From UHGV virus genome UHGV-0076931: DNA of 35,663 nt; one strand, given 5' to 3'. The translations under genes and the position numbers were made by a program. Below are positions 18,401-31,494 of the stretch, one piece after another. The notes beneath the pieces were generated by a model that saw nothing but the letters and a program-made list of their open reading frames with translations, was not told the DNA's origin and did not search any database. The stretch comes from a virus. How positions within the stretch are numbered: position 1 is the first letter of the stretch; the number at the start of each line of letters is the position of its first letter.

Positions 18401-19201
18401 TTAACCGCGCTTCGCCTTCTGCGTCGCGGTGGTTTTTCGTGTTGCAGGCTTCCGCGTTGTCTTTTTACTTTTGCTGCTTTCGTCCTGCGCCTGCTGTGCG
18501 CTGGCGTCTTCTGGTGCGGCTGCGGAATCGGCTTTTTTCAGGGCGCGGGAAAGGGTTGCAATCTCGCGTTTCACACCTGCGTTCGGGTTCAGGTGCATTG
18601 CTTCGCGCAGCAGCTTCAGTGACAGGGCCATGCTGTCCGCATCGCTCAGGCCACGGCGGGCAAAGGCGCACGCCTTGCATAATTTGGCGCGCACTTCGTC
18701 CGGCATGTCCTGGTTGGCGACAATTTCCCAAAGTGTGTCCAGTGGTTCGATAAAGGCGGACAAATCCGCGTCGGCATCCGTCCCGGCCTGCGTCAGTACC
18801 GGATTGCAGATTTCTTCGGTCAGCACTGTGGCAGCAGTACGGCCAAAGTTATCCGGCATGATGAGGTTATGACGGACCACATACGCGCCGATACGCAGCG
18901 CAAGCGGAAGATCGCCGCAGTCAATCGCCCACACCATCAGCGTGGCAATCACTTCATCCTGCTGCCCGCCGTCAGCCTCCAGTGTTCCCTCAATCCAGCC
19001 GGAAAAGTCCGGCAACAACTCTTTTTTGATGGCGGCTTTGGCGCTTCTGGCCTGTACGCCCTTAAGCCGGGCCTGTACCAGACGCAGACGATACAGCACC
19101 TCTTCATGCGCGGTACGCGCGGCGTGGTCCACGCCTTCATTCGCCCGGCCTGCGCGCTGTGCCATCACGTTCTGCCAGTGTTGTTGTGCAGGAGTAATCA
19201 T
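18401..19201 (-). CDS. M: Terminase small (endonuclease) subunit M
   Basis: 266 aa; position between N and L. Confidence 0.85.
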   Translation of the reverse strand: MITPAQQHWQNVMAQRAGRANEGVDHAARTAHEEVLYRLRLVQARLKGVQARSAKAAIKKELLPDFSGWIEGTLEADGGQQDEVIATLMVWAIDCGDLPLALRIGAYVVRHNLIMPDNFGRTAATVLTEEICNPVLTQAGTDADADLSAFIEPLDTLWEIVANQDMPDEVRAKLCKACAFARRGLSDADSMALSLKLLREAMHLNPNAGVKREIATLSRALKKADSAAAPEDASAQQAQDESSKSKKTTRKPATRKTTATQKAKRG

Positions 19202-21313: not shown

Positions 21314-23065
21314 ATGATTCAGGACGCTTTTGTGCGCCAGCGTGCGCGACAACTTTACTGGCAGGGTTATCCGCCCGCAGAAATATCACGTCTGATGGGA
21401 ATAAACCCGAACACGATTTATGCGTGGAAAAAACGCGACCAGTGGGATGAAACGCCACCCGTGCAGCGTGTCACGCAGTCCATCGATGCGCGTCTCATCC
21501 AGCTTACTGAAAAACAGAATAAAACAGGCGGTGACTTCAAGGAAATAGACCTGCTGACCCGGCAGCTTAAAAAGCTGCATGATGGCCAGCCGGATGTGAC
21601 GGCCACAGGAAAGAAAGGCCGGGCGAAAAAACTCAAAAATCATTTCACGCCGGAACAGATTGCCGCACTGCGGGAAAAAATCATCAGCAGGCTGGAGTGG
21701 CATCAGCGGGGCTGGTTTGACTCCCTGACCCTTTGCAGGGAAGCCGGGATACGTAACAGGATGATCCTGAAATCCCGACAGATTGGGGCGACCTGGTATT
21801 TTGCACAGGAAGCACTGCTGATGGCGCTGCGTGACGATGTGGTGCAACCTTACCAGCGTAACCAGATTTTTTTGTCTGCGTCGCGTCGTCAGGCGTTCCA
21901 GTTTAAAAGCATTATTCAGAAGGCCGCGGCTGAAGTTGATGTGGAGCTGAAAGGGGGCGATAAAATCATCCTCTCCAACGGCGCAGAGCTGCATTTTCTC
22001 GGCACTTCTGCTGCGTCGGCGCAGTCCTATACGGGCAATTTTTATTTTGATGAATTTTTCTGGGTCAGTCGCTTTGCTGAACTGCGCAAGGTGGCTGGCG
22101 CTATGGCAACCCTCAGCGGACTGCGGCGCACCTACTTCTCCACGCCATCCACCGAAACGCACGAGGCATACGCCTACTGGAACGGCGACCGCTGGAACGA
22201 GAAAAAGGCCACGCATAAACGCCAGCGTTTTTCTGTGGACTGGAAAACGCTGCATAACGGGCTTATCTGCCCTGACCGGACGTGGCGGCAAATTGTCACG
22301 CTGGAAGATGTGGTTAATCACGGCTGGAAACACACCGATATCGACGAAATTCGTGATGAAAACACCGAAGACGAGTTCCTCAATCTCTATATGTGTGAGT
22401 TTGTCCGCGAAGGGGAATCGGCATTTAACCTGAATATCCTGATTGGCTGCGGTGTTGACGGATACGACGACTGGAAAGACTGGAAACCTTTTGCTCCCCG
22501 CCCGATGGGGAATCGTCCGGTATGGATTGGGTATGACGCAAACGGCAGCAGTGGCAACGGCGATAGCGGCGCTGTGTCCGTGGTGGTTCCTCCGTCTGTT
22601 CCTGGTGGCCGTTTTCGAACGGTGGAGACGCGACGCGTTCAGGGGCTGGAGTTTGAAGAACAGGCCAGAGTCATTGAAGAGTTCACGTGTCGCTACAACG
22701 TGGAACACATCGGCATTGATGTGACGGGCGGGAACGGGGAGGCTGTTTATCAGATAGTGAAACGGTTTTTCCCTGCCGCCATTCCGTACACCTTCACGCT
22801 GTCATCAAAACGGTCGCTGGTACTGAAAATGCTGCAAATAATGCGTGCCGGGCGGTGGGAATACGATCGCGCCGAACGCGAGCTGGTCGCGGCCTTTAAC
22901 GCCGTGCGTAAGGTGAAAACACCGGGCGGCTTTATCACTTACGAAACGGACCGTGCGAGGGGGATCAGCCACGGCGACCTTGCGTGGGCAACCATGCTTG
23001 CTGTCATTAACGAACCAATTGGCGGCGAAGGAGAAAACGAGCGTTTCACGGTTATGGAGTTCTGA
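21314..23065 (+). CDS. P: Terminase large (ATPase) subunit P
   Basis: 583 aa; GGGGGAG SD; size and position match P2 gpP. Confidence 0.9.
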   Translation: MIQDAFVRQRARQLYWQGYPPAEISRLMGINPNTIYAWKKRDQWDETPPVQRVTQSIDARLIQLTEKQNKTGGDFKEIDLLTRQLKKLHDGQPDVTATGKKGRAKKLKNHFTPEQIAALREKIISRLEWHQRGWFDSLTLCREAGIRNRMILKSRQIGATWYFAQEALLMALRDDVVQPYQRNQIFLSASRRQAFQFKSIIQKAAAEVDVELKGGDKIILSNGAELHFLGTSAASAQSYTGNFYFDEFFWVSRFAELRKVAGAMATLSGLRRTYFSTPSTETHEAYAYWNGDRWNEKKATHKRQRFSVDWKTLHNGLICPDRTWRQIVTLEDVVNHGWKHTDIDEIRDENTEDEFLNLYMCEFVREGESAFNLNILIGCGVDGYDDWKDWKPFAPRPMGNRPVWIGYDANGSSGNGDSGAVSVVVPPSVPGGRFRTVETRRVQGLEFEEQARVIEEFTCRYNVEHIGIDVTGGNGEAVYQIVKRFFPAAIPYTFTLSSKRSLVLKMLQIMRAGRWEYDRAERELVAAFNAVRKVKTPGGFITYETDRARGISHGDLAWATMLAVINEPIGGEGENERFTVMEF

Positions 23066-24111
23066 TGAGCAGAAAAAATAAAAAAGTGCGCATGAGTTCA
23101 CGCATTGATCTCGCTGATGCGCTCAGGAAAGAATCGTCGCTCAGTGCATTCACATTTGATGGTCCTTATCGCCTGACCGGGCATGATCTGCTGGATAATA
23201 TGTACTGTGCTGATAACGGGCGGTGGTATGAAACCCCGGTGGACTGGTACGGTCTGGCAAGAGCTGCCCGGCAAACGTCCTGGCATCAGTCTGCGCTTTA
23301 CTTTAAGCGCAATGTATTGCTCGGTTGCTATATTCCGCACCCGCTGCTTTCCCGGCAGGATTTCTCGGCGCTGGCGCTGGACTGGTTTATGTTCGGTAAC
23401 GCATTCCTTGAGCTTCGAAACAATATGCTCGGCGAACCGCTTAAATTACGGCACGCTCTGGCGAAATACATGCGACGCGGAAGCGATCTTGAATCATGGT
23501 GGTATGTGCAGGATGGCAAGGACGCGTTCCAGTTTCGCCCTGGCAAAGTGTGCCACCTGATGAATCCGGATATTAACCAGGAAATCTACGGCATGCCGGA
23601 ATATCTTGGCGCATTACTCTCGGCCAGCCTGTCTCATTCGGCGGACATGTTCAGAAAACTGTATTACGACAACGGATCCCACGCCGGGTGCATCATCTAC
23701 ATCGGTGCAGCGCAGGTAAACCGTGAAAGCATGGACTCCCTGAAAGAAACGCTACAGGGTGCACGTGGTGGTGGTGCGTTTAAAAACGTGCTCATTCATG
23801 CGCCCAACGGGGGCAAAGAAGGTGTGCAAATTTTGCCGTTCCAGCAGATCACCGCAAAGGATGAGTTCATGAATGTTAAGTCGGCATCCCGTGATGATGT
23901 GCTGGCTGCGCACCGCGTTCCGCCGCAACTGATGGGGGCGATGCCGGGCGAAAAAAGTGCGTTTGGTGATGTGGAGAAGGCCGCGCGGGTTTACGCAATT
24001 AACGAGCTGATGCCTGTCATGGAGGCCATGAAGCACATCAATGACTGGCTTGGCGAAGAGGTGATCCGTTTTAATTCTTATGCTCTTCTTGATGAAAAAA
24101 CAGCCCCGTGA
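23065..24111 (+). CDS. Q: Portal protein Q
   Basis: 348 aa; start overlaps the P stop (ATGA); size and position match P2 gpQ. Confidence 0.9.
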   Translation: MSRKNKKVRMSSRIDLADALRKESSLSAFTFDGPYRLTGHDLLDNMYCADNGRWYETPVDWYGLARAARQTSWHQSALYFKRNVLLGCYIPHPLLSRQDFSALALDWFMFGNAFLELRNNMLGEPLKLRHALAKYMRRGSDLESWWYVQDGKDAFQFRPGKVCHLMNPDINQEIYGMPEYLGALLSASLSHSADMFRKLYYDNGSHAGCIIYIGAAQVNRESMDSLKETLQGARGGGAFKNVLIHAPNGGKEGVQILPFQQITAKDEFMNVKSASRDDVLAAHRVPPQLMGAMPGEKSAFGDVEKAARVYAINELMPVMEAMKHINDWLGEEVIRFNSYALLDEKTAP

Positions 24112-24127
24112 TGGGGCTGTCCTTTTT
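24101..24127. terminator. Bidirectional intrinsic terminator between convergent Q and the 174-aa gene
   Basis: Stem cagcccc / ggggctg with 5-nt loop, flanked by aaaaaa upstream and ttttt downstream; includes the Q stop codon. Confidence 0.7.
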
Positions 24128-24650
24128 ACCAGAGTTGAACCATTTTCTGGGTGCCGTCAGGCTTGAGATTATCAATTTCAGAGAGAACGTAATATTGAAT
24201 GGCTTCACAAACGGTGGTGTATGGTGAATTACCTTCTTTAAGTGGCACGATATTATTATTAACGCGAACCTGTATTTCATCGTTATACATTGCGATCGAA
24301 AGAGGAGTATGCACGAACGCGACTTCGCCAGGTGTGTCGTCAACCACTGTCTCAATGCTGAAAATCAGTTTTCGCTCATCATTGCCGCCCCTTGCTTTGG
24401 GGGTAGCGGCAGGAATCTGAGATAAAGGCATTCTGCGAAACCCTTCAGTTGTTTCCAGTCCGCATGAAACGTAATGCTGGCGATTACCGTCGCTATCCGT
24501 CCATGTCTGTGATGGCAGCTCCAGAGAGATTTCATAAGCATCAACAATTCCCTGGGCAAGGTGTACAAGCGGGGTCAGATCTTCATTGCGGCGAAAACTT
24601 TCCTTTACCTGCTCTCGTTTTTCTCGTAACTGCTTGTAATTAATGACCAT
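24126..24650 (-). CDS. Hypothetical protein (174 aa), accessory gene next to portal
   Basis: Lower GC than flanking phage genes; start placed at ATG 24650 with GGAGG SD (ORF extends to 24689); no recognisable motifs. Confidence 0.6.
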   Translation of the reverse strand: MVINYKQLREKREQVKESFRRNEDLTPLVHLAQGIVDAYEISLELPSQTWTDSDGNRQHYVSCGLETTEGFRRMPLSQIPAATPKARGGNDERKLIFSIETVVDDTPGEVAFVHTPLSIAMYNDEIQVRVNNNIVPLKEGNSPYTTVCEAIQYYVLSEIDNLKPDGTQKMVQLW

Positions 24651-25149
24651 AAAACAGCCTCCATTGATTTCTTTGCTCGTATTTTGCACTTATGAAGTGT
24701 GGTCGGCAAGGTGCCGCATCACTGACGCGCTTCGCTTGTCTGCTGCTTCGCCGAGGCATAAAAAATTTATGCCCCGACTCTCCAGCTCCTGTATCAATCA
24801 GATAATTTCACGACGTCTTCCGACTTATCGCTATCATCGACAGTCAGGCTCTTACGCAATCCCGCCGCGCTGACTGCATGTTCTCGCCGCCTCAGTGCGA
24901 TTTTAATGGCCTTACCTTTCATCCCATCAAATCAGAACCCCTTACGTCTTTTTCACGTTCAGTGTGAGCGATACAGCCATTCTGTTGTGTCGCTGCGACA
25001 TCGTTCAGGGAATGCTATTTACCCCCTGAAACGCGGGCTGTTCCCCCGTCACCTGCGCGCAGAAAAAGCGCGTTTTTTTGTGCACGCACGGATCCTTGAC
25101 GGATCCAACCGCCATGCGGGCCGGAAGGGTAAAAAGTCGTTCAAAAAAA

Positions 25150-25176
25150 TTGTGCAAATTTGTGCACTATTGTGCA
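25150..25176. repeat. Three direct TTGTGCA repeats at exact 10-bp phasing
   Basis: ttgtgca at 25150, 25160 and 25170, immediately beside the terminator hairpin at 25187-25207. Confidence 0.5.
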
Positions 25177-25186
25177 TTGAAATAAA

Positions 25187-25207
25187 CGCCCTGAAAGAGG
25201 GCGTTTT
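25187..25207 (-). terminator. Intrinsic terminator ending the minus-strand accessory operon
   Basis: Stem cgccct / agggcg with loop gaaag; T-rich flank on both strands. Confidence 0.6.
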
Positions 25208-25216
25208 GGCTCATTT

Positions 25217-25477
25217 CTATAGCTTTGATGCAGGTTGGGCTAGATGTAATGGTTGGACATACCAGCCTTTTGATAACCAACTCTCTGCAACCTCTTTACT
25301 CCTTGTTATTGCTGGTATTCCGATGCCGTTATTTACATGCATCCATGCTACTGGCTCTGCTTCCAGCGATGCCAGAGCAATTTCATAAGCACGGCGTTCA
25401 ATATTGTCTCTCACGTCTAGGCTGCCTATGCGCTCTTTGATTTCTTTAATCATTTCTTTGTCGGTTAAAGTGGTCAT
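25217..25477 (-). CDS. Hypothetical protein (86 aa)
   Basis: ORF in tight operon arrangement; no recognisable motifs. Confidence 0.5.
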   Translation of the reverse strand: MTTLTDKEMIKEIKERIGSLDVRDNIERRAYEIALASLEAEPVAWMHVNNGIGIPAITRSKEVAESWLSKGWYVQPLHLAQPASKL

Positions 25478-25487
25478 GGGTCAGTTC

Positions 25488-25613
25488 TCAACCAATAGTT
25501 ATGTGAATGAAAGAAAGCAGCCAAAGAATGGACTCAATAACTGCCCAACCAATAACGGCGCAAATGACACCGAAAACAACGAAAAAACCAGTACCAGGCA
25601 AATTATTGAACAT
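25488..25613 (-). CDS. Small hydrophobic membrane peptide (41 aa)
   Basis: Hand translation MFNNLPGTGFFVVFGVICAVIGWAVIESILWLLSFIHITIG; AAGGAG SD; ATG 2 nt after the upstream stop; not in the ORF track. Confidence 0.4.
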   Translation of the reverse strand: MFNNLPGTGFFVVFGVICAVIGWAVIESILWLLSFIHITIG

Positions 25614-25615
25614 CC

Positions 25616-25930
25616 TCACTCTCCTTTGATGCCAGTGTTTACAACCTGACAAGCCTCTTTGAGCACCCAGTCAATAGCATCTTTCCATGCTCCGGTTTCG
25701 GCTGGCGGATTCTCACGCTTTACCAGTTCATAGAAACGTACTGCTCTAACCAGTCCATCTGACGGTTTTGCCTGTAGTGCAGCCTGAGCTATGCGGTATG
25801 CCTGGAGTATACGGGCGTCGTTGATATCCATTCCGAACGGAATTTCTGATGATTGTGATTCTGCATCTTCAAGCCTGGCAATTTCTTTACGTAAAAAGTA
25901 TTTCAACTCTTGTTTTTGTTTTCTGTTCAT
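25616..25930 (-). CDS. Hypothetical protein (104 aa)
   Basis: ORF with 4-nt overlap to the upstream gene; no recognisable motifs. Confidence 0.55.
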
Positions 25931-26259
25931 GCGTTTTTTTCCTTTTTGTCTGTCACTTCTTTCCTGATAATTTCATTGCACAAATCCACGCACTCATTGC
26001 AGATGTAAACAGACGGTCCGGCAATCACCTTTGTGACTTCGTACTGGGATTTATTGCAGAAACTGCAATAAACCGTCTTCTCGCCTGAAGTCCATGTTTT
26101 GCTGGTTTCGCCAGACATCAGTTGTTTGAGGTCTTTTTCACGACGAAGAACTATCTGGCCACATTCAGCTATTTTTTGGATGTTGACATTTTCTTCTTTC
26201 GCCAGCGCTTCCATCCGCTCAATCAGTCGCTGCGCTTTTTCTCTGTCAATGTGTTGCAT
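25927..26259 (-). CDS. Small protein with ClpX-type C4 zinc-finger domain (110 aa)
   Basis: C-terminal half [34 protein letters not shown] closely resembles the N-terminal zinc-binding domain of ClpX; no AAA+ domain; AAGGGGGA SD. Confidence 0.7.
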
Positions 26260-26322: not shown

Positions 26323-26634
26323 TTATTCGGGAAATAACGCCCGGATATTTCCGGCCATCTGACTGGTTATCTGTGCGGTTGATACTGGCTGTGACGCGGG
26401 GCGTTCTGTCCTGGTTTGTGGCACTGATAACGCCTCATCATCAGCCCATGCAGCCAGTCGGTAAGCCTCTGCCGGATTCATTTTCAGTAGTGCCAGCCCG
26501 GCCAGAAAAGCCACGCGTTGGCCGCTTTTGCGGGCTTCTGGTGTAAGGCTGTCCAGCCAGGCGCATGCTTCGCCTTCGTTCTTGACGGCGGCGGGCTTCA
26601 GATAGAAACTTATCCGTCTGGTTGGTGTTGTCAT
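26323..26634 (-). CDS. parR: ParR-like partition adaptor / repressor
   Basis: Start at ATG 26634 with AAGGAG SD, 4 nt after the parM stop; RISFYLKP...LAGLALL...NIRALFPE pattern as I recall it from R1 ParR. Confidence 0.65.
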   Translation of the reverse strand: MTTPTRRISFYLKPAAVKNEGEACAWLDSLTPEARKSGQRVAFLAGLALLKMNPAEAYRLAAWADDEALSVPQTRTERPASQPVSTAQITSQMAGNIRALFPE

Positions 26635-26638
26635 TGGT

Positions 26639-27598
26639 TTACTCCTTGTCCATTGCGTACAGCCCATTAACCAGAGCAAACTGTGGCACCCCGTCCGCGA
26701 TGAAAGTCGCATTAACTCCGCAGGCTTCGCGGATAGCGGGTGCCACAATCTCCGCCCCTCCACCGACAACCATCGCCCGCCCGTAACCCGAAAAACCCGC
26801 CAGCGCGCGGATCACGCGTTGTTTCAGTGTTTCTTCCTTTTCACGAATAACAGCCATCAGGCTGTCGTAATGCGCGTCATTGTGGATGTGCTGGCGCAGC
26901 CAGGCTTCATCATGGCGATGTTCGATAATGGTATTGGCGATATGGTGACTGGTGCGCATACCGTTAGTGGCCATCACCGACAGTACGGCATCGGCCATCA
27001 GGGAAACGCCTACGTGTGGATCGCAAAACACCTGGCTGATACCTGCCAGTTGCCCCTGAACCTTTGCCACATCCAGCGTGGTTCCGCCCAAATCCACAAT
27101 CAGCAGGGATTCAAACGGACTCATGTCAGCCAGTGCTTTAAAGCCAGCCGGAATGGATTCAGGCATAACCCGCACGTTACGGATAGTGAATGCTTCGCCG
27201 TTCTGGTACTCCACCGGGCGCATAACGTTCGCTTTTTTGCGGTTGATGTTGGCCATGTCCGGCTGTGCGTTTGTGTCGAAATACTCGCTCAGTGGCAGGG
27301 TGACAACCACATCCACCTCCTGTGGCGTGATGCCTGATTTGACCAGCGCGTGATGAATGGCAATTACATTCACATCGCTGTACTGGTATTGCGTGTCGGT
27401 CGTCTGGACAAAGCGATCGCTGACCGGATCAAAACCATAGCGCACGCCATCAAGCATGTAGTTTGCGGGCTGCGTGCCACCGAACGGCGCAGACCATTCC
27501 GACTTGAAGCTGTTCGGGCTGATGGCGTTGCGGCGTTCTCCGTTCTCAGTCCATGCCAGCTTGATGTTGGTGGAGCCGTCATCGATACAAATTTTCAT
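26639..27598 (-). CDS. parM: ParM (StbA) actin-like plasmid segregation ATPase
   Basis: Collinear match to R1 ParM blocks: IDDGSTNIKL, ISPNSFK, YSDVNVIAIHHAL, VMPESIPAGF, DLGGTTLD, GGGAE, LVNGLY. Confidence 0.88.
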   Translation of the reverse strand: MKICIDDGSTNIKLAWTENGERRNAISPNSFKSEWSAPFGGTQPANYMLDGVRYGFDPVSDRFVQTTDTQYQYSDVNVIAIHHALVKSGITPQEVDVVVTLPLSEYFDTNAQPDMANINRKKANVMRPVEYQNGEAFTIRNVRVMPESIPAGFKALADMSPFESLLIVDLGGTTLDVAKVQGQLAGISQVFCDPHVGVSLMADAVLSVMATNGMRTSHHIANTIIEHRHDEAWLRQHIHNDAHYDSLMAVIREKEETLKQRVIRALAGFSGYGRAMVVGGGAEIVAPAIREACGVNATFIADGVPQFALVNGLYAMDKE

Positions 27599-27628
27599 GT
27601 CGCTTTTCCTTATGTTGATTAATTAATC

Positions 27629-27738
27629 GTTTACGGGATTCTGAAATCCCGTTTTTGCCTGTTTTATGCGCGCTTCATATATCGCGGCGCGTTTTTTGCT
27701 CATTTACGGGATTTGTGAATCCCGTTTCTGTCTGTTTT
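27629..27738. repeat. parC-like site: two copies of a ~36-bp element each containing palindrome ACGGGATT-N4-AATCCCGT
   Basis: Copies at 27629-27665 and 27701-27738, directly upstream of parM; the second lies in the 3' end of the A reading frame. Confidence 0.5.
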
Positions 27739-30497
27739 TTGTTTCCACTGGTCAGGCCACCCCGCAGCAGGTCTGCTTTGCGGCGGGCGCGTTCAGTGGT
27801 TTCACTGATTCTCTGTGCGTGCTCTGCGTCGCGGATGGCGCGCAGCATGTCAGAAAGCACGGTAACGGGTGTTTTCATGGTGTTCTGGTCTTGCTGAAGT
27901 GTGGATGCCAGGCGTGCGGCGGCTTCGGGGTCTGATGCCCCCAGCTGTTCCAGATAGCTGGCGACCGGGTTATGGCGGATCTCCGTGCTGCTTACGCCGT
28001 GGTTACGGCTCAGGCGCTGCCAGAGCTGCGTGATCCGGCTGTCCGGGCGGGTATCCGGTTTGCGTACAATTTCAAATCCCTGCGGTGCAATGATGCTGCC
28101 GTCAACGTACAGACTGCCGCCCCGTAACAGGTGCTGCATCTGCTGTTCACCAATATGCAGGCCGAGAGATTCAGCAGACTCCCGCCATTCTTTAGCGAGT
28201 AATTCGTGGTTATCAGGCAAAGGCCGCAGCTGTTTGCGGCTCTGTGTCCAGCTCTGCATTTCATCACTGCTGTTTTTTGCCTGTTTGTCACGAAGCGAAC
28301 GCATCAGCGCCCGGCGTTCGTGCCGTTTCAGTGAGCGCATCCATTCGTTCACTTCAACGCCGTCAGGGAGCTGCGGCCACGGTGCTGGCCGTTCTTCCGG
28401 CTGTTCTGTCCCGTTGTTGTCCGTTTCCTGTACACGGGGACAGTTATTGCCACGAGTCCAAGGGGCGGCAGGGCCGCCCTGAAGGTCAAAACCATTTTCG
28501 TGGGCGTTGTCTTCTGGTTCTGGTTTACGTCTTACCAATTTCCAGTTATCCGGATGCGTGCACACACGGGAGGATTCCCCGATGAGTGGTGACCAGATCC
28601 CGTAAATCTGTACGCTCTGTTCGCCGTAATCGTTCAGCTCATCTGCGAGGTCGTAGGCGGTGCGAATCAGGTAGTCCTTGCGTGGAACAAGCACGCCACC
28701 CTGTTTTTCAATGTAGGTGGCAAAACACCCGGCATCGGCGGCAGCGAGTACCGCATCCATTGCATCATCTTTCAGCCGTTGCGGGCCTTCCGGATTGCGT
28801 GCCATCTGGCTGGCAAGGCGGCGCAGTTCACGCCACACCTGACGGGAGGGGATGCCAAAGAACTGGAACTGACGGACCCGGTGAAGGCGCGCCCAGCCGA
28901 TGGCGCGCTCCACGCTCTCGGCCATTGATTTTCCGGTTTCGTGGTCAACGCGTGGCTTGCCCGTTTTCGGGTCGATGCCATCCACGGCGCGGCTGTCCAG
29001 GTTCTTTCCGATGTAGGTGGCGATGTAGCTGGTTGGTGTGCCTTTTGAGCCGTCGACATACTCCGCCTTAAAACGCGGAGTTATGTCATCGCCCAGCTCG
29101 TGGCGGTCCTCCTGAATGGCAATATCGCAGACGTGGGACACGATGGTTTCAATCTCGTCCGGATGTGCAAAGACCATCATATGCCAGTGCACAGTGCCGT
29201 CATGGTGAGGCTCCACCGTGCGGATGCCATACCAGCGCAGGCCGTCGCGGTTCAGTTTTTTGCGGACCGCCGCAAAAAACGTGTTAACCAGGTAATCGCT
29301 GGAGTCGCGCATGGTGGCCCCGTTCCATTTGGGGTTCGGATGACCGTTCTCCGTTGTTGCGTGGTATTTTGACGGGCAGGTGACGGTCAGAAACACCGCT
29401 CTGTCGCCACGGGCTTCGGCCAGAAGTTCCAGTCCCTTCATGGTGGCCATCATTTCTGCCTTACGGTGAACCGGGTTACTTACTCCCGCGTAATACACCG
29501 TCTCGAGATCAATCGTGAACCCGTCTTCATTTTCCAGCATGAAACTTTTCAGGAAATCGCGTGTTTTCTCGCGCTGTGCGCGAAACTCGCTTAACGCGTC
29601 CTGGCTCAGATAGGGCGATGTTTTTCTGGAAACCAGACAGGCGGCGCGGAGTTGTTCTTCTCTCCACTCGCAACGTAACAGCCACAGTTTGCGTTTCCAC
29701 CATTCCGCACAGGTCAGGCGAAGGATTGCGCCCGGCAGCAGCTCCGTGTCCGGTTCGTTCCTCCGGTCTTTATCTGTTGTCAGTGCGTCATAATGTGGAG
29801 GCATGATGTGCAGGTGTAACGCCATGCGGGCCAGCATCTGATACGCCTTCAGCGTTACATCCATGGTCAGTTCGCCATCGGTCGCGCCAAAGCCATCGCA
29901 GAGTTTTTCGAAGGTGCTGCTGAACATCGCCGCCGTCATGGTGGCCAGCGTCTGTATCTGGTGTTTGTTGAGCTGCGGCAGGTAAAGCAAATCGTCCAGG
30001 CGTTCGCGTCCGGCAAGGGAGCGATAACCCGGTGTCAGCCAGCGTCCGTCAGTGCGATCCAGACGTTCGAATATTTTGCGTAGGGTTCCGCGTGCATAGC
30101 GTTCCGCCTGCCAGCTCTTTTTGCCTTTCCGGCGATCGGCTTCCTGTTTTTTGCGCAGGAAGGAGAGGTGGCGAATAAGCGGATCGCGCAGATAGGACGG
30201 CAGCAGGCGCAGCGAGGCCATGGCTTCATCCACCGCGTCGCGTGCCTGTTTTCTGGCGTCTCCTGCCAGTGTGATGGTTTTGTCCTGTTTTTCCTGTGCG
30301 TCCAGGCTTTTATTAATCAGGTTGCCCAGCGGCGTGGCGGAGAACGCCGCATCAGCCATTTCCTGGCGGCGCTCGTTCTCTACCCGGTAGGCATCCAGCC
30401 AGGAGGAAAGCGCGGATCCAGGAGCGGGGATCCCCGTTCCTTCACGCCCCACTGCGTGGCGCGGTTGTTGCCAGTCCCTGATGTACTCTGCCGTCAT
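27675..30497 (-). CDS. A: Replication initiation endonuclease A (rolling-circle, HUH type)
   Basis: 940 aa; HUH motif in HWHMMVF and paired tyrosines in YIATYIGK as in P2 gpA; longer than P2 A at the C-terminus. Confidence 0.9.
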   Translation of the reverse strand: MTAEYIRDWQQPRHAVGREGTGIPAPGSALSSWLDAYRVENERRQEMADAAFSATPLGNLINKSLDAQEKQDKTITLAGDARKQARDAVDEAMASLRLLPSYLRDPLIRHLSFLRKKQEADRRKGKKSWQAERYARGTLRKIFERLDRTDGRWLTPGYRSLAGRERLDDLLYLPQLNKHQIQTLATMTAAMFSSTFEKLCDGFGATDGELTMDVTLKAYQMLARMALHLHIMPPHYDALTTDKDRRNEPDTELLPGAILRLTCAEWWKRKLWLLRCEWREEQLRAACLVSRKTSPYLSQDALSEFRAQREKTRDFLKSFMLENEDGFTIDLETVYYAGVSNPVHRKAEMMATMKGLELLAEARGDRAVFLTVTCPSKYHATTENGHPNPKWNGATMRDSSDYLVNTFFAAVRKKLNRDGLRWYGIRTVEPHHDGTVHWHMMVFAHPDEIETIVSHVCDIAIQEDRHELGDDITPRFKAEYVDGSKGTPTSYIATYIGKNLDSRAVDGIDPKTGKPRVDHETGKSMAESVERAIGWARLHRVRQFQFFGIPSRQVWRELRRLASQMARNPEGPQRLKDDAMDAVLAAADAGCFATYIEKQGGVLVPRKDYLIRTAYDLADELNDYGEQSVQIYGIWSPLIGESSRVCTHPDNWKLVRRKPEPEDNAHENGFDLQGGPAAPWTRGNNCPRVQETDNNGTEQPEERPAPWPQLPDGVEVNEWMRSLKRHERRALMRSLRDKQAKNSSDEMQSWTQSRKQLRPLPDNHELLAKEWRESAESLGLHIGEQQMQHLLRGGSLYVDGSIIAPQGFEIVRKPDTRPDSRITQLWQRLSRNHGVSSTEIRHNPVASYLEQLGASDPEAAARLASTLQQDQNTMKTPVTVLSDMLRAIRDAEHAQRISETTERARRKADLLRGGLTSGNKKQTETGFTNPVNEQKTRRDI

Positions 30498-31172: not shown

Positions 31173-31350
31173 GGTGTGGCCCCTTGTGTAGTAAGTTGTG
31201 AAAACTCACCATCCAGAGCTGCGAAACTGTGGGTGGCGAGACGTACGAGGTTCGCAGTACCGGCTACACAAGAACCCGGCCCGACCGAAGTCGGCCCCGT
31301 ACGCCCCGCCATAATTCTGACGCGAAAAAAACGTGGCAATACAGTACGCA

Positions 31351-31372
31351 CAAAAAAACCGCTGGCGCGGTT
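31351..31372 (-). terminator. Intrinsic terminator inside the early operon
   Basis: Stem aaccgc / gcggtt with loop tggc; run of seven T on the minus strand (caaaaaaa on +). Confidence 0.55.
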
Positions 31373-31494
31373 GTGCGCTTGTGTAGTCAGCAGGCTGCGA
31401 AACCCGGCACCCGTTTTGTGAGGTGCAGCGGAAATGTAACCTGACTGATTGCGGCATGGCAAGCGGTTTTTTTGTGTGTGCATGTTCTGGTTTC

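Follow-up and report, generated by a model that had tools for sequence, protein, structure and literature searches.

A predicted P2-type cos site with a diverged cohesive end downstream of the portal gene of a P88-like prophage

The virus genome UHGV-0076931 (35,663 nt, analysed over its full length and referred to here as the window) is, judged from its sequence, a P88-like prophage (genus Xuanwuvirus, Peduoviridae) of the P2 family. Between two minus-strand open reading frames (ORFs) of 187 a.a. (24126-24689) and 86 a.a. (25217-25477) lies a region (24690-25216) that is matched in 1141 of 5426 complete Escherichia coli genomes (P88-like prophages), and that PGAP left without annotation in most E. 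coli genomes. The copy carried by E. coli ECL27977 is 100% identical to this region. Nucleotides 25017-25176 of this region very probably constitute the cos (packaging) site of the prophage, organised like the cos of P2, 186, P4, and phiCTX. The element is an ordinary one, i.e., a cos of the known P2-family kind with a diverged sequence that had previously gone unannotated. A preliminary description, made by inspection of the sequence, had proposed that this stretch holds a divergent cos, encodes a small RNA, or has a regulatory role; the first of these options held up, with the phased boxes forming part of a module that has the P2-family layout and a diverged counterpart of the cohesive end. 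The predicted module and its parts are as follows.

25017-25176: complete predicted cos (packaging) module, the only stretch common to phage and satellite elements
25017-25034, minus strand: portal-side flank of the predicted nicking site (cosN), GCG-TTTCAGGGGGTAAAT; conserved, and overlapping an alternative cosN candidate at 25013-25031
25035-25053, minus strand: predicted cosN cohesive-end 19-mer, 5'-GGTGACGGGGGAACAGCCC-3', counterpart of GGCGAGGCGGGGAAAGCAC in P2
25054-25060: TGCGCGC heptamer adjoining cosN; its minus strand, GCGCGCA^G, equals the P2 bottom-strand nick context
25055-25079, plus strand: GC hairpin GCGCGC-AGAAAAA-GCGCGT followed by T7, terminator-like, counterpart of the GC hairpin beside P2 cos
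25078-25084, plus strand: fourth TTGTGCA box, equivalent of TGCATTAAAAC, the outermost element of the 55-bp cos core in P2
25085-25142: spacer of ~65 bp from box 4 to boxes 1-3, its sequence differing between lineages
25088-25095 and 25099-25106: direct repeat ACGGATCC within the spacer
25109-25119: small dyad CCGC-CAT-GCGG within the spacer
25143-25149, plus strand: invariant A7 tract adjoining the boxes, inverted relative to the T7 at 25073-25079
25150-25176, plus strand: three TTGTGCA boxes, forming the outer edge of the conserved module and proposed as a cosB-like array for terminase loading

The three TTGTGCA repeats had been described as lying at exact 10-bp phasing, and this is what we found (25150-25156, 25160-25166, and 25170-25176); the triple pattern arose in none of 100 shuffles. 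A fourth copy in the same orientation (25078-25084), absent from the preliminary description, was also noted, and four of the eight TTGTGCA copies of the window therefore fall within 99 bp. The GC hairpin with its T-run was likewise present as reported, the hairpin occupying 25055-25073 and the T7 running to 25079. In reverse complement, the layout reads TGCACAA-tag-TGCACAA-att-TGCACAA, T7, the 65-bp spacer, TGCACAAAAAAAC, CGCGC-TTTTTCT-GCGCG, CA, and GGTGACGGGGGAACAGCCC. The heptamer adjoining cosN has a partner, GCGGGCT, at 25033-25039, and the plus strand at this place (GCGGGCT^G, 25033-25040) resembles the top-strand context of P2, GCGGGCG^G.

To compare this layout with mapped sites, the circular junctions of P2, P4, and 186 were rebuilt from their annotated ends, and phiCTX was added, together with a lineage resembling the Klebsiella phage 3LV2017 (Klebsiella type). 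All of these sites and the window proved collinear, comprising three TGCA boxes, a spacer, a TGCA with an A-run, a GC hairpin, and a G-rich 19-mer. Read from the right to the left genome end, the cohesive-end sequence of P2, P4, 186, and phiCTX comes last but one and is followed by the GCGCGC heptamer, and their spacer measures 60-67 bp, often with a dyad; a dyad sits at the equivalent place in 186, P4, phiCTX, and the Klebsiella type. The P2/186/P4 cos is described, in passages of PMC3931495 and PMC9594776 that go back to Ziermann & Calendar 1990, as a 19-nt 5' cohesive end, GGCG(A/T)GGCGGGGAAAGCA(C/T), within a 55-bp conserved core. The P2 segment from TGCATTAAAAC to TGCGCGC is exactly 55 bp, the size of the conserved cos region given in those passages (PMC3931495, PMC9594776). 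In the window, the fourth box is 31 nt from the 19-mer (vs. 29 nt in P2), in the same orientation as the P2 cohesive end, and the core elements are found on the minus strand, the TGCA box and its A-run as TGCACAAAAAAAC, the GC hairpin as CGCGC-TTTTTCT-GCGCG, and the GCGCGC heptamer of the predicted cut as GCGCGCA^GGTGAC. Three phased TGCA-type boxes are likewise found ~100-125 bp from the predicted cut, on the side away from the portal gene, a feature that we derived from P2, P4, 186, and phiCTX and for which a literature description was not confirmed.

The window therefore resembles the P2, 186, and P4 sites in its position between the portal gene end and the early/cargo region, the order of its elements, its terminase families, its GCGCGC-type heptamers at the predicted cut sites, and in being common to satellites. 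It differs from P2 in its boxes, which are TTGTGCA at strict 10/10 bp phasing vs. TGCAT at 12-13/10 bp in the P2 group, and in its symmetric heptamers; given these are 14 bp apart in the window and 19 bp apart in P2, the overhang could be 14-22 nt. The portal stop codon and cos are ~170 bp apart in P2 vs. ~330 bp here (~920 bp in the window, with an inserted gene included). The cos of phiCTX, with annotated cosL/cosR and a 21-nt cohesive end (AGGCGTGGCGGGGGGACGACT), shares with the Klebsiella type and the window a GTGCA with an A-run, ~18 nt, a G-rich cohesive sequence, and GCGCGC, and the Klebsiella type also has a TTGTGCA-type box array, as does the window. In contrast, phiCTX has ctx and attP-related repeats beside cos and boxes of GCAGRR type, and its cohesive sequence is P2-like whereas that of the window has diverged. 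The lambda cos (cosQ-cosN-cosB, with gpNu1 R sites and an IHF bend) is alike in combining a nicking site, one-sided phased sites for the recognition subunit of terminase, and bendable DNA in between, but shows no sequence or protein homology to the site described here and has an overhang of 12 nt.

Given the direct similarity to P2 is weak, the assignment rests on transitive homology and layout. An IMG/VR scan with the box pattern returned ~115 related loci from several lineages. The Klebsiella type carries TTGTGCA-type boxes and GGCGAGGCGGGGGAGCAAG-CGCGCGC, which agrees with the P2 cohesive end at each of its first 12 nt. In all five Klebsiella-type loci, a P2/P4/186 core profile had its top match there, over its full length (E 0.0014-0.028). 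The end of one Klebsiella-type contig aligned with the annotated cosR of phiCTX at 85.5% over 55 nt (E 2e-8). A Klebsiella-type core profile, in turn, had a single match in the window (25085-25029, minus strand, E 8.3e-8), the next best having an E-value of 0.62. On these alignments, the homology of the window to P2-type cos is established through the Klebsiella intermediates. Also considered was a cosN at 25061-25079, with the GCGCGCA heptamer on one side and the fourth box on the other; this placement was dropped, as the Klebsiella-type intermediates make this heptamer a hairpin arm beside the 19-mer.

Among P88-like phages, homology extends from ~24717 to exactly 25176, the final base of the third box, past which the phages are completely different from one another (hypervariable cargo). 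This variable side corresponds to the cos-proximal defence hotspot of P2-like phages (PMC9122126). In an alignment of 69 unique P88-type sequences, 25035-25054 was 100% invariant. The phiT5282H type and other lineages with differing flanks retain this 19-mer, and the T-run and fourth box are kept in such lineages where the GC stem is lost. A metagenome scan with the 19-mer of the window recovered 103 related loci. The module lies downstream of the portal gene, on the same strand, in 106 of 106 related loci, and the window, which has P2-type terminase genes, carries it where the P2 family has its cos, i.e., between the portal 3' end and the replication/cargo region.

The ends of contigs and database records place genome ends inside the module, with the nick positions not fixed by them. 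A 34,834-bp contig of the Klebsiella type (IMGVR_UViG_3300014695_000007) ends exactly after GGCGAGGCGGGGGAGCAAG, the predicted cohesive end; an IMG/VR scan for contigs that begin with this sequence brought up no case, and hence no terminal repeat was seen. Two metagenome contigs of genome length, 32,523 and 31,753 bp, stop 3 and 22 nt past the 19-mer, at the window equivalents of 25032 (L221) and 25013 (L237), and the linear record NC_049391.1 (P88_4B11) is opened at the equivalent of 25131|25132. Sibling records of the project behind NC_049391.1 are virion-DNA contigs with Nextera adapter remnants at their ends, or start exactly at P2 cos; the ends of this project therefore reflect virion DNA, but not to the base. 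As an aside, the RefSeq record NC_049386.1 (Peduovirus P22H1; L132/L133; bases 1-31 and the last 22) carries Nextera adapter remnants, GTCGGCAGCGTCAGATGTGTATAAGAGACAG at its start and CTGTCTCTTATACACATCTGAC at its end, the phage sequence proper beginning at base 10 of a P2-type cohesive end. No informative contig ends came from IMG/VR scans with the box pattern or with a pattern from the left flank. Apparent truncations, such as those of L112 and L257, were set aside as storage-chunk boundaries, and the end of L118 as the edge between conserved and variable sequence. A contig search with the portal protein yielded chromosomal contigs only, and these break off beyond cos, ~1.28 kb downstream of the portal stop codon (~25390).

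Several observations weigh against the assignment. The best ungapped match to the GGCGWGGCGGGG-type cohesive end of P2 in the region is 13 of 19 positions (25035-25053, minus strand), a match of this quality arising 12 times by chance across the window, and the earlier remark that no P2/186-like cos was visible was a fair one; the P2/P4/186 core profile, too, had no significant match there. Conservation of the GC hairpin does not extend to every lineage. Neither 25035 nor 25053 coincides exactly with the end of any contig or record, the boundary of NC_049391.1 is ~80 bp off, in the spacer, and the P88/phiT-type contigs end exactly 19 nt apart, which would fit an overhang at 25013-25031 too. 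Finally, no published cos mapping was found for P88-like/Xuanwuvirus phages, and a literature search for LR595891 likewise gave nothing usable.

The contig ends bear most directly on the possibility that the module is still the cos but is cut elsewhere, either with the overhang at 25013-25031 (minus strand, 5'-TTTCAGGGGGTAAATAGCA) and the 19-mer serving as a recognition element next to it, or in the spacer, around 25110-25131. The 19-nt distance between the ends of L237 and L221 is what the filled-in and recessed ends of a 19-nt overhang would give, and the first 15 nt of the 25013-25031 stretch fall inside a 44-nt run that is identical between phage and satellite. However, 25013-25031 differs between lineages and has no symmetric flanks, and the cohesive ends of the P2 family are strongly conserved. 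It is moreover the Klebsiella block homologous to 25035-25053 that matches the cohesive ends of P2 and phiCTX, with a contig ending exactly there, and contigs assembled from mixed linear and circular DNA can overrun the physical end by a few bases. As for the spacer, NC_049391.1 is opened beside the G-rich CCGCCATGCGGGCCGGAAGGGTA, which is loosely like an inverted P2 cos; yet no other part of the module is as poorly conserved as the spacer, which is also unlike between phage and satellite, and the dyad in the equivalent spacer of 186, P4, and phiCTX accompanies a cosN known to lie elsewhere. We regard a cut elsewhere in the module as unlikely, and lean slightly towards the 19-mer at 25035-25053 as the overhang. 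Separately, we noted a 10-nt inverted repeat, CTATTTACCC / GGGTAAAAAG (25015-25024 and 25127-25136), flanking cosN and the fourth box, whose arms fall where contig L237 ends (25013) and where NC_049391.1 has its boundary (25131|25132); this may be a coincidence.

The extent of the module is given by elements that share it with the phages. Nine loci had the boxes and the 19-mer with no portal gene; one was a chance match in GC-rich DNA (L155) and two were of a different type (L217 and L272), leaving six satellite-like loci (L163, L230, L131, L171, L191, and L199) of two element types, represented by the following contigs.

L163: the whole of the 12,919-bp contig SKEX01000933.1
L230: the 12,891-bp contig OFEI01000080.1

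Each of the two encodes a P4-type integrase, an 889-a.a. toprim primase, a 236-240-a.a. coiled-coil ORF, and a 418-449-a.a. ORF with an N-terminal extension, which in L230 is a P2-family major capsid homologue by Pfam. L230 also encodes an Ogr/Delta zinc-finger protein, and neither has a portal or terminase gene. Aligned with the window, L163 shows homology over a single stretch, which opens with the first TGCACAA box and stops ~40 nt after the 19-mer has begun. The satellites carry identical boxes, with differences in the middle of the spacer and in the hairpin loop, and the 44-nt run identical between phage and satellite, GCGCGCA-GGTGACGGGGGAACAGCCC-GCG-TTTCAGGGGGTAAAT, corresponds to 25017-25060 of the window. 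This pattern of sharing delimits the functional module to 25017-25176. L163 and L230 thus have in common with the phages only the cos module, as P4 does with P2, their dependence on a helper being putative; by their gene content, these ~12-kb integrative elements look like satellites of P88/phiT5282H-type helpers that encode a capsid-protein homologue of their own.

The proteins that would act on such a site are encoded to its left, and are listed here with the other neighbouring features.

18401-19201, minus strand: small terminase subunit (TerS) of the P2 gpM family (PF05944, E 1.7e-36; 37% identity to P2 gpM)
21314-23065, plus strand: large terminase subunit (TerL; PF06056, PF03237, and PF17289; 44% identity to P2 gpP)
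23065-24111, plus strand: portal gene, P2 gpQ homologue (47% identity to P2 gpQ)
24126-24689, minus strand: accessory gene of 174-187 a.a. (phrog_5091, unknown function), inserted between the portal gene and cos
24752-24776: AT-rich hairpin with 11-bp arms, directly after the portal stop codon in relatives lacking the 187-a.a. insert
24794-24922, minus strand: 42-a.a. ORF annotated in some phage records, not protein-coding
25184-25207: bidirectional intrinsic terminator where the minus-strand cargo genes end (3'), part of the variable cargo module and not of cos
27675-30497: gpA replication protein gene
31229-31316 and 31352-31426, both minus strand: C4 and isrK RNA matches (Rfam)

The P2 family packages its DNA from monomeric circles, as is known from the classical literature. 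In the prophage described here, terminase, through TerS (18401-19201) and/or the gpP-type helix-turn-helix (HTH) domain at the N-terminus of TerL (residues 6-63), would load on the three phased boxes and the fourth box. The invariant A7 and T7 tracts, which flank the spacer, and the ~65-bp spacer itself would allow the DNA to bend and so bring the complex over cosN, where the large subunit would make staggered nicks in or beside the 19-mer GGTGACGGGGGAACAGCCC, flanked by the GCGCGCA and GCGGGCT heptamers, leaving 5' cohesive ends. It is analogy with the known sites that would predict the box-binding protein, the bending, the exact nick positions, and the overhang length, and on the same analogy it is reasonably probable that the TTGTGCA boxes are terminase-binding sites.

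Phased direct repeats are also typical of operators and centromeres, and the array could in principle be a transcriptional operator or promoter element, or the parC of a ParM/ParR system, instead of a packaging signal. Genes for a ParM (26639-27598) and a StbB/ParR-like protein (26323-26634) lie 1.1-2.4 kb away, and the equivalent boxes of P2 are near the old-tin transcript start. Yet the position of the boxes is fixed relative to cosN in P2, P4, 186, and phiCTX, which have no ParMR there, and the boxes are kept in satellites with other neighbouring genes. The centromere of a ParMRC system would further be expected as iterated ParR-binding repeats directly upstream of parM; the boxes lie 1.1 kb beyond parR with variable cargo in between, and parM has AATCCCGTAAA repeats of its own directly upstream. 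Regarding an operator, a promoter scan found no sigma-70-like promoter in 24690-25216, and the right-flank genes converge on the boxes, ending at the terminator. We consider either role quite improbable in place of terminase loading. The ParM (StbA_N/ParM_N) and StbB/ParR-like pair (26323-27598, minus strand) is an observation in its own right in an integrating P2-family prophage; the AATCCCGTAAA repeats (27599-27720), which include one inverted arrangement and overlap the end of the gpA gene, are candidate parC sites.

The left 330 bp of the region (24690-25016) lie outside cos and comprise a portal-proximal hairpin and a loosely constrained non-coding spacer. Pairwise alignment showed that they are not common to phages and satellites, and 24810-25010 was the part of the region with the weakest constraint among the 69 unique P88-type sequences. 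The hairpin is an AT-rich 8-bp inverted repeat that the preliminary description had correctly recognised but placed about 10 bp off, at 24743-24762; its arms are GGCATAAA at 24755-24762 and TTTATGCC at 24766-24773, extending to 24752-24762 and 24766-24776 (dG -10.7, z -4.1). The hairpin probably corresponds to tQ of P2, though it has no U-tract. The earlier statement that the region contains no credible ORF was also sound, the sole ORF annotated in some phage records (42 a.a.) lacking a coding signature: across the 69 unique relatives, its start is mostly GTG or TTG, frameshifts occur in six and a stop in two, and variable sites number 25, 19, and 16 at codon positions 1, 2, and 3, with no third-position bias. 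Pfam and PHROGs searches with this ORF gave no match.

These features bear on whether the region might instead encode a small RNA or small protein ending at the terminator-like hairpin. In its favour are that hairpin with its T7 (25055-25079, plus strand), the stable, conserved hairpin at 24752-24776, and the annotation of the 42-a.a. ORF in several phage records. The ORF, however, has the frameshifts, stops, and codon-position pattern given above. As to RNA, Rfam was searched by a scan of the whole window at gathering thresholds and an E-value scan of 24000-25600; no Rfam 15 family reached its gathering threshold in 24000-25600, where the only match was a weak one to gyrA RNA (E 0.026, 21.5 bits vs. 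a cut-off of 45), and no promoter-like site was found upstream. As a rho-independent terminator, 25055-25079 offers a 6-pair stem followed by T7, with a fold z of -1.1, and phiT5282H-type and other related lineages have lost this stem while keeping everything around it; 24810-25010, as noted, is the least constrained part of the region. The small-RNA option thus went unsupported, there being neither an Rfam family match nor a promoter-like site and the annotated small ORF not being coding, and we regard a product of either kind as most improbable.

On the other side of the module, the terminator that had been noted was confirmed at 25184-25206, with a dG of -14.3 and -13.4 kcal/mol on the two strands and a z of about -4; it is present only in the subset of relatives with the same cargo. 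On the portal side, the phrog_5091 gene is absent from P88 itself and occurs in about 20 of the 106 related loci. The portal gene lies ~436 nt from the boxes where this insert is missing and about 1010-1042 nt from them where it is present. The insert (24100-24716) brings its own terminator-like hairpin (24100-24120), which overlaps the portal stop codon, and substitutes for the last portal codons seen in P88.

A few observations concern sequences further along the window. The region of the 86-a.a. ORF (25238-25477) has 83% DNA identity to unannotated stretches of many Stx2-converting lambdoid phages, and two Logan contigs break inside this ORF (~25390), which hints at a module that phage families exchange and that host genomes carry repeatedly. 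Between cos and parR, a 110-a.a. protein (25927-26259, minus strand) has a ClpX-type C4 zinc finger (PF06689, E 6.8e-18). Above their Rfam gathering scores, a C4 antisense RNA (83.2 bits) lies beside an isrK Hfq-binding RNA (64.1 bits), a pair that suggests an RNA-based immunity module of the P1/P7/P4 type in a P2-family prophage.

Cos was annotated in none of the P88-like records examined, and the ~160-bp module lets P88-like genomes be oriented and delimited. It also marks the edge of the defence/cargo hotspot, which begins directly after the third box, aids the recognition of satellites parasitising P88-like phages, and may be of use in the design of cosmids or transducing particles for this group. 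Tentatively, the boxes, spacer, and fourth box may form a family-wide, uncharacterised terminase-loading (cosB-like) module of the Peduoviridae, in which TTGTGCA boxes and a diverged cosN (its overhang possibly shorter or shifted) would define a separate packaging-specificity group, exploited by its own ~12-kb satellite lineage with a P2-family capsid gene and the same cos; this is possible, though we would not call it probable. The current understanding of cos packaging is unchanged by the site, and, judging from the comparison, phased TGCA boxes would seem to belong generally to the packaging signals of the P2 family, a proposition open to testing.

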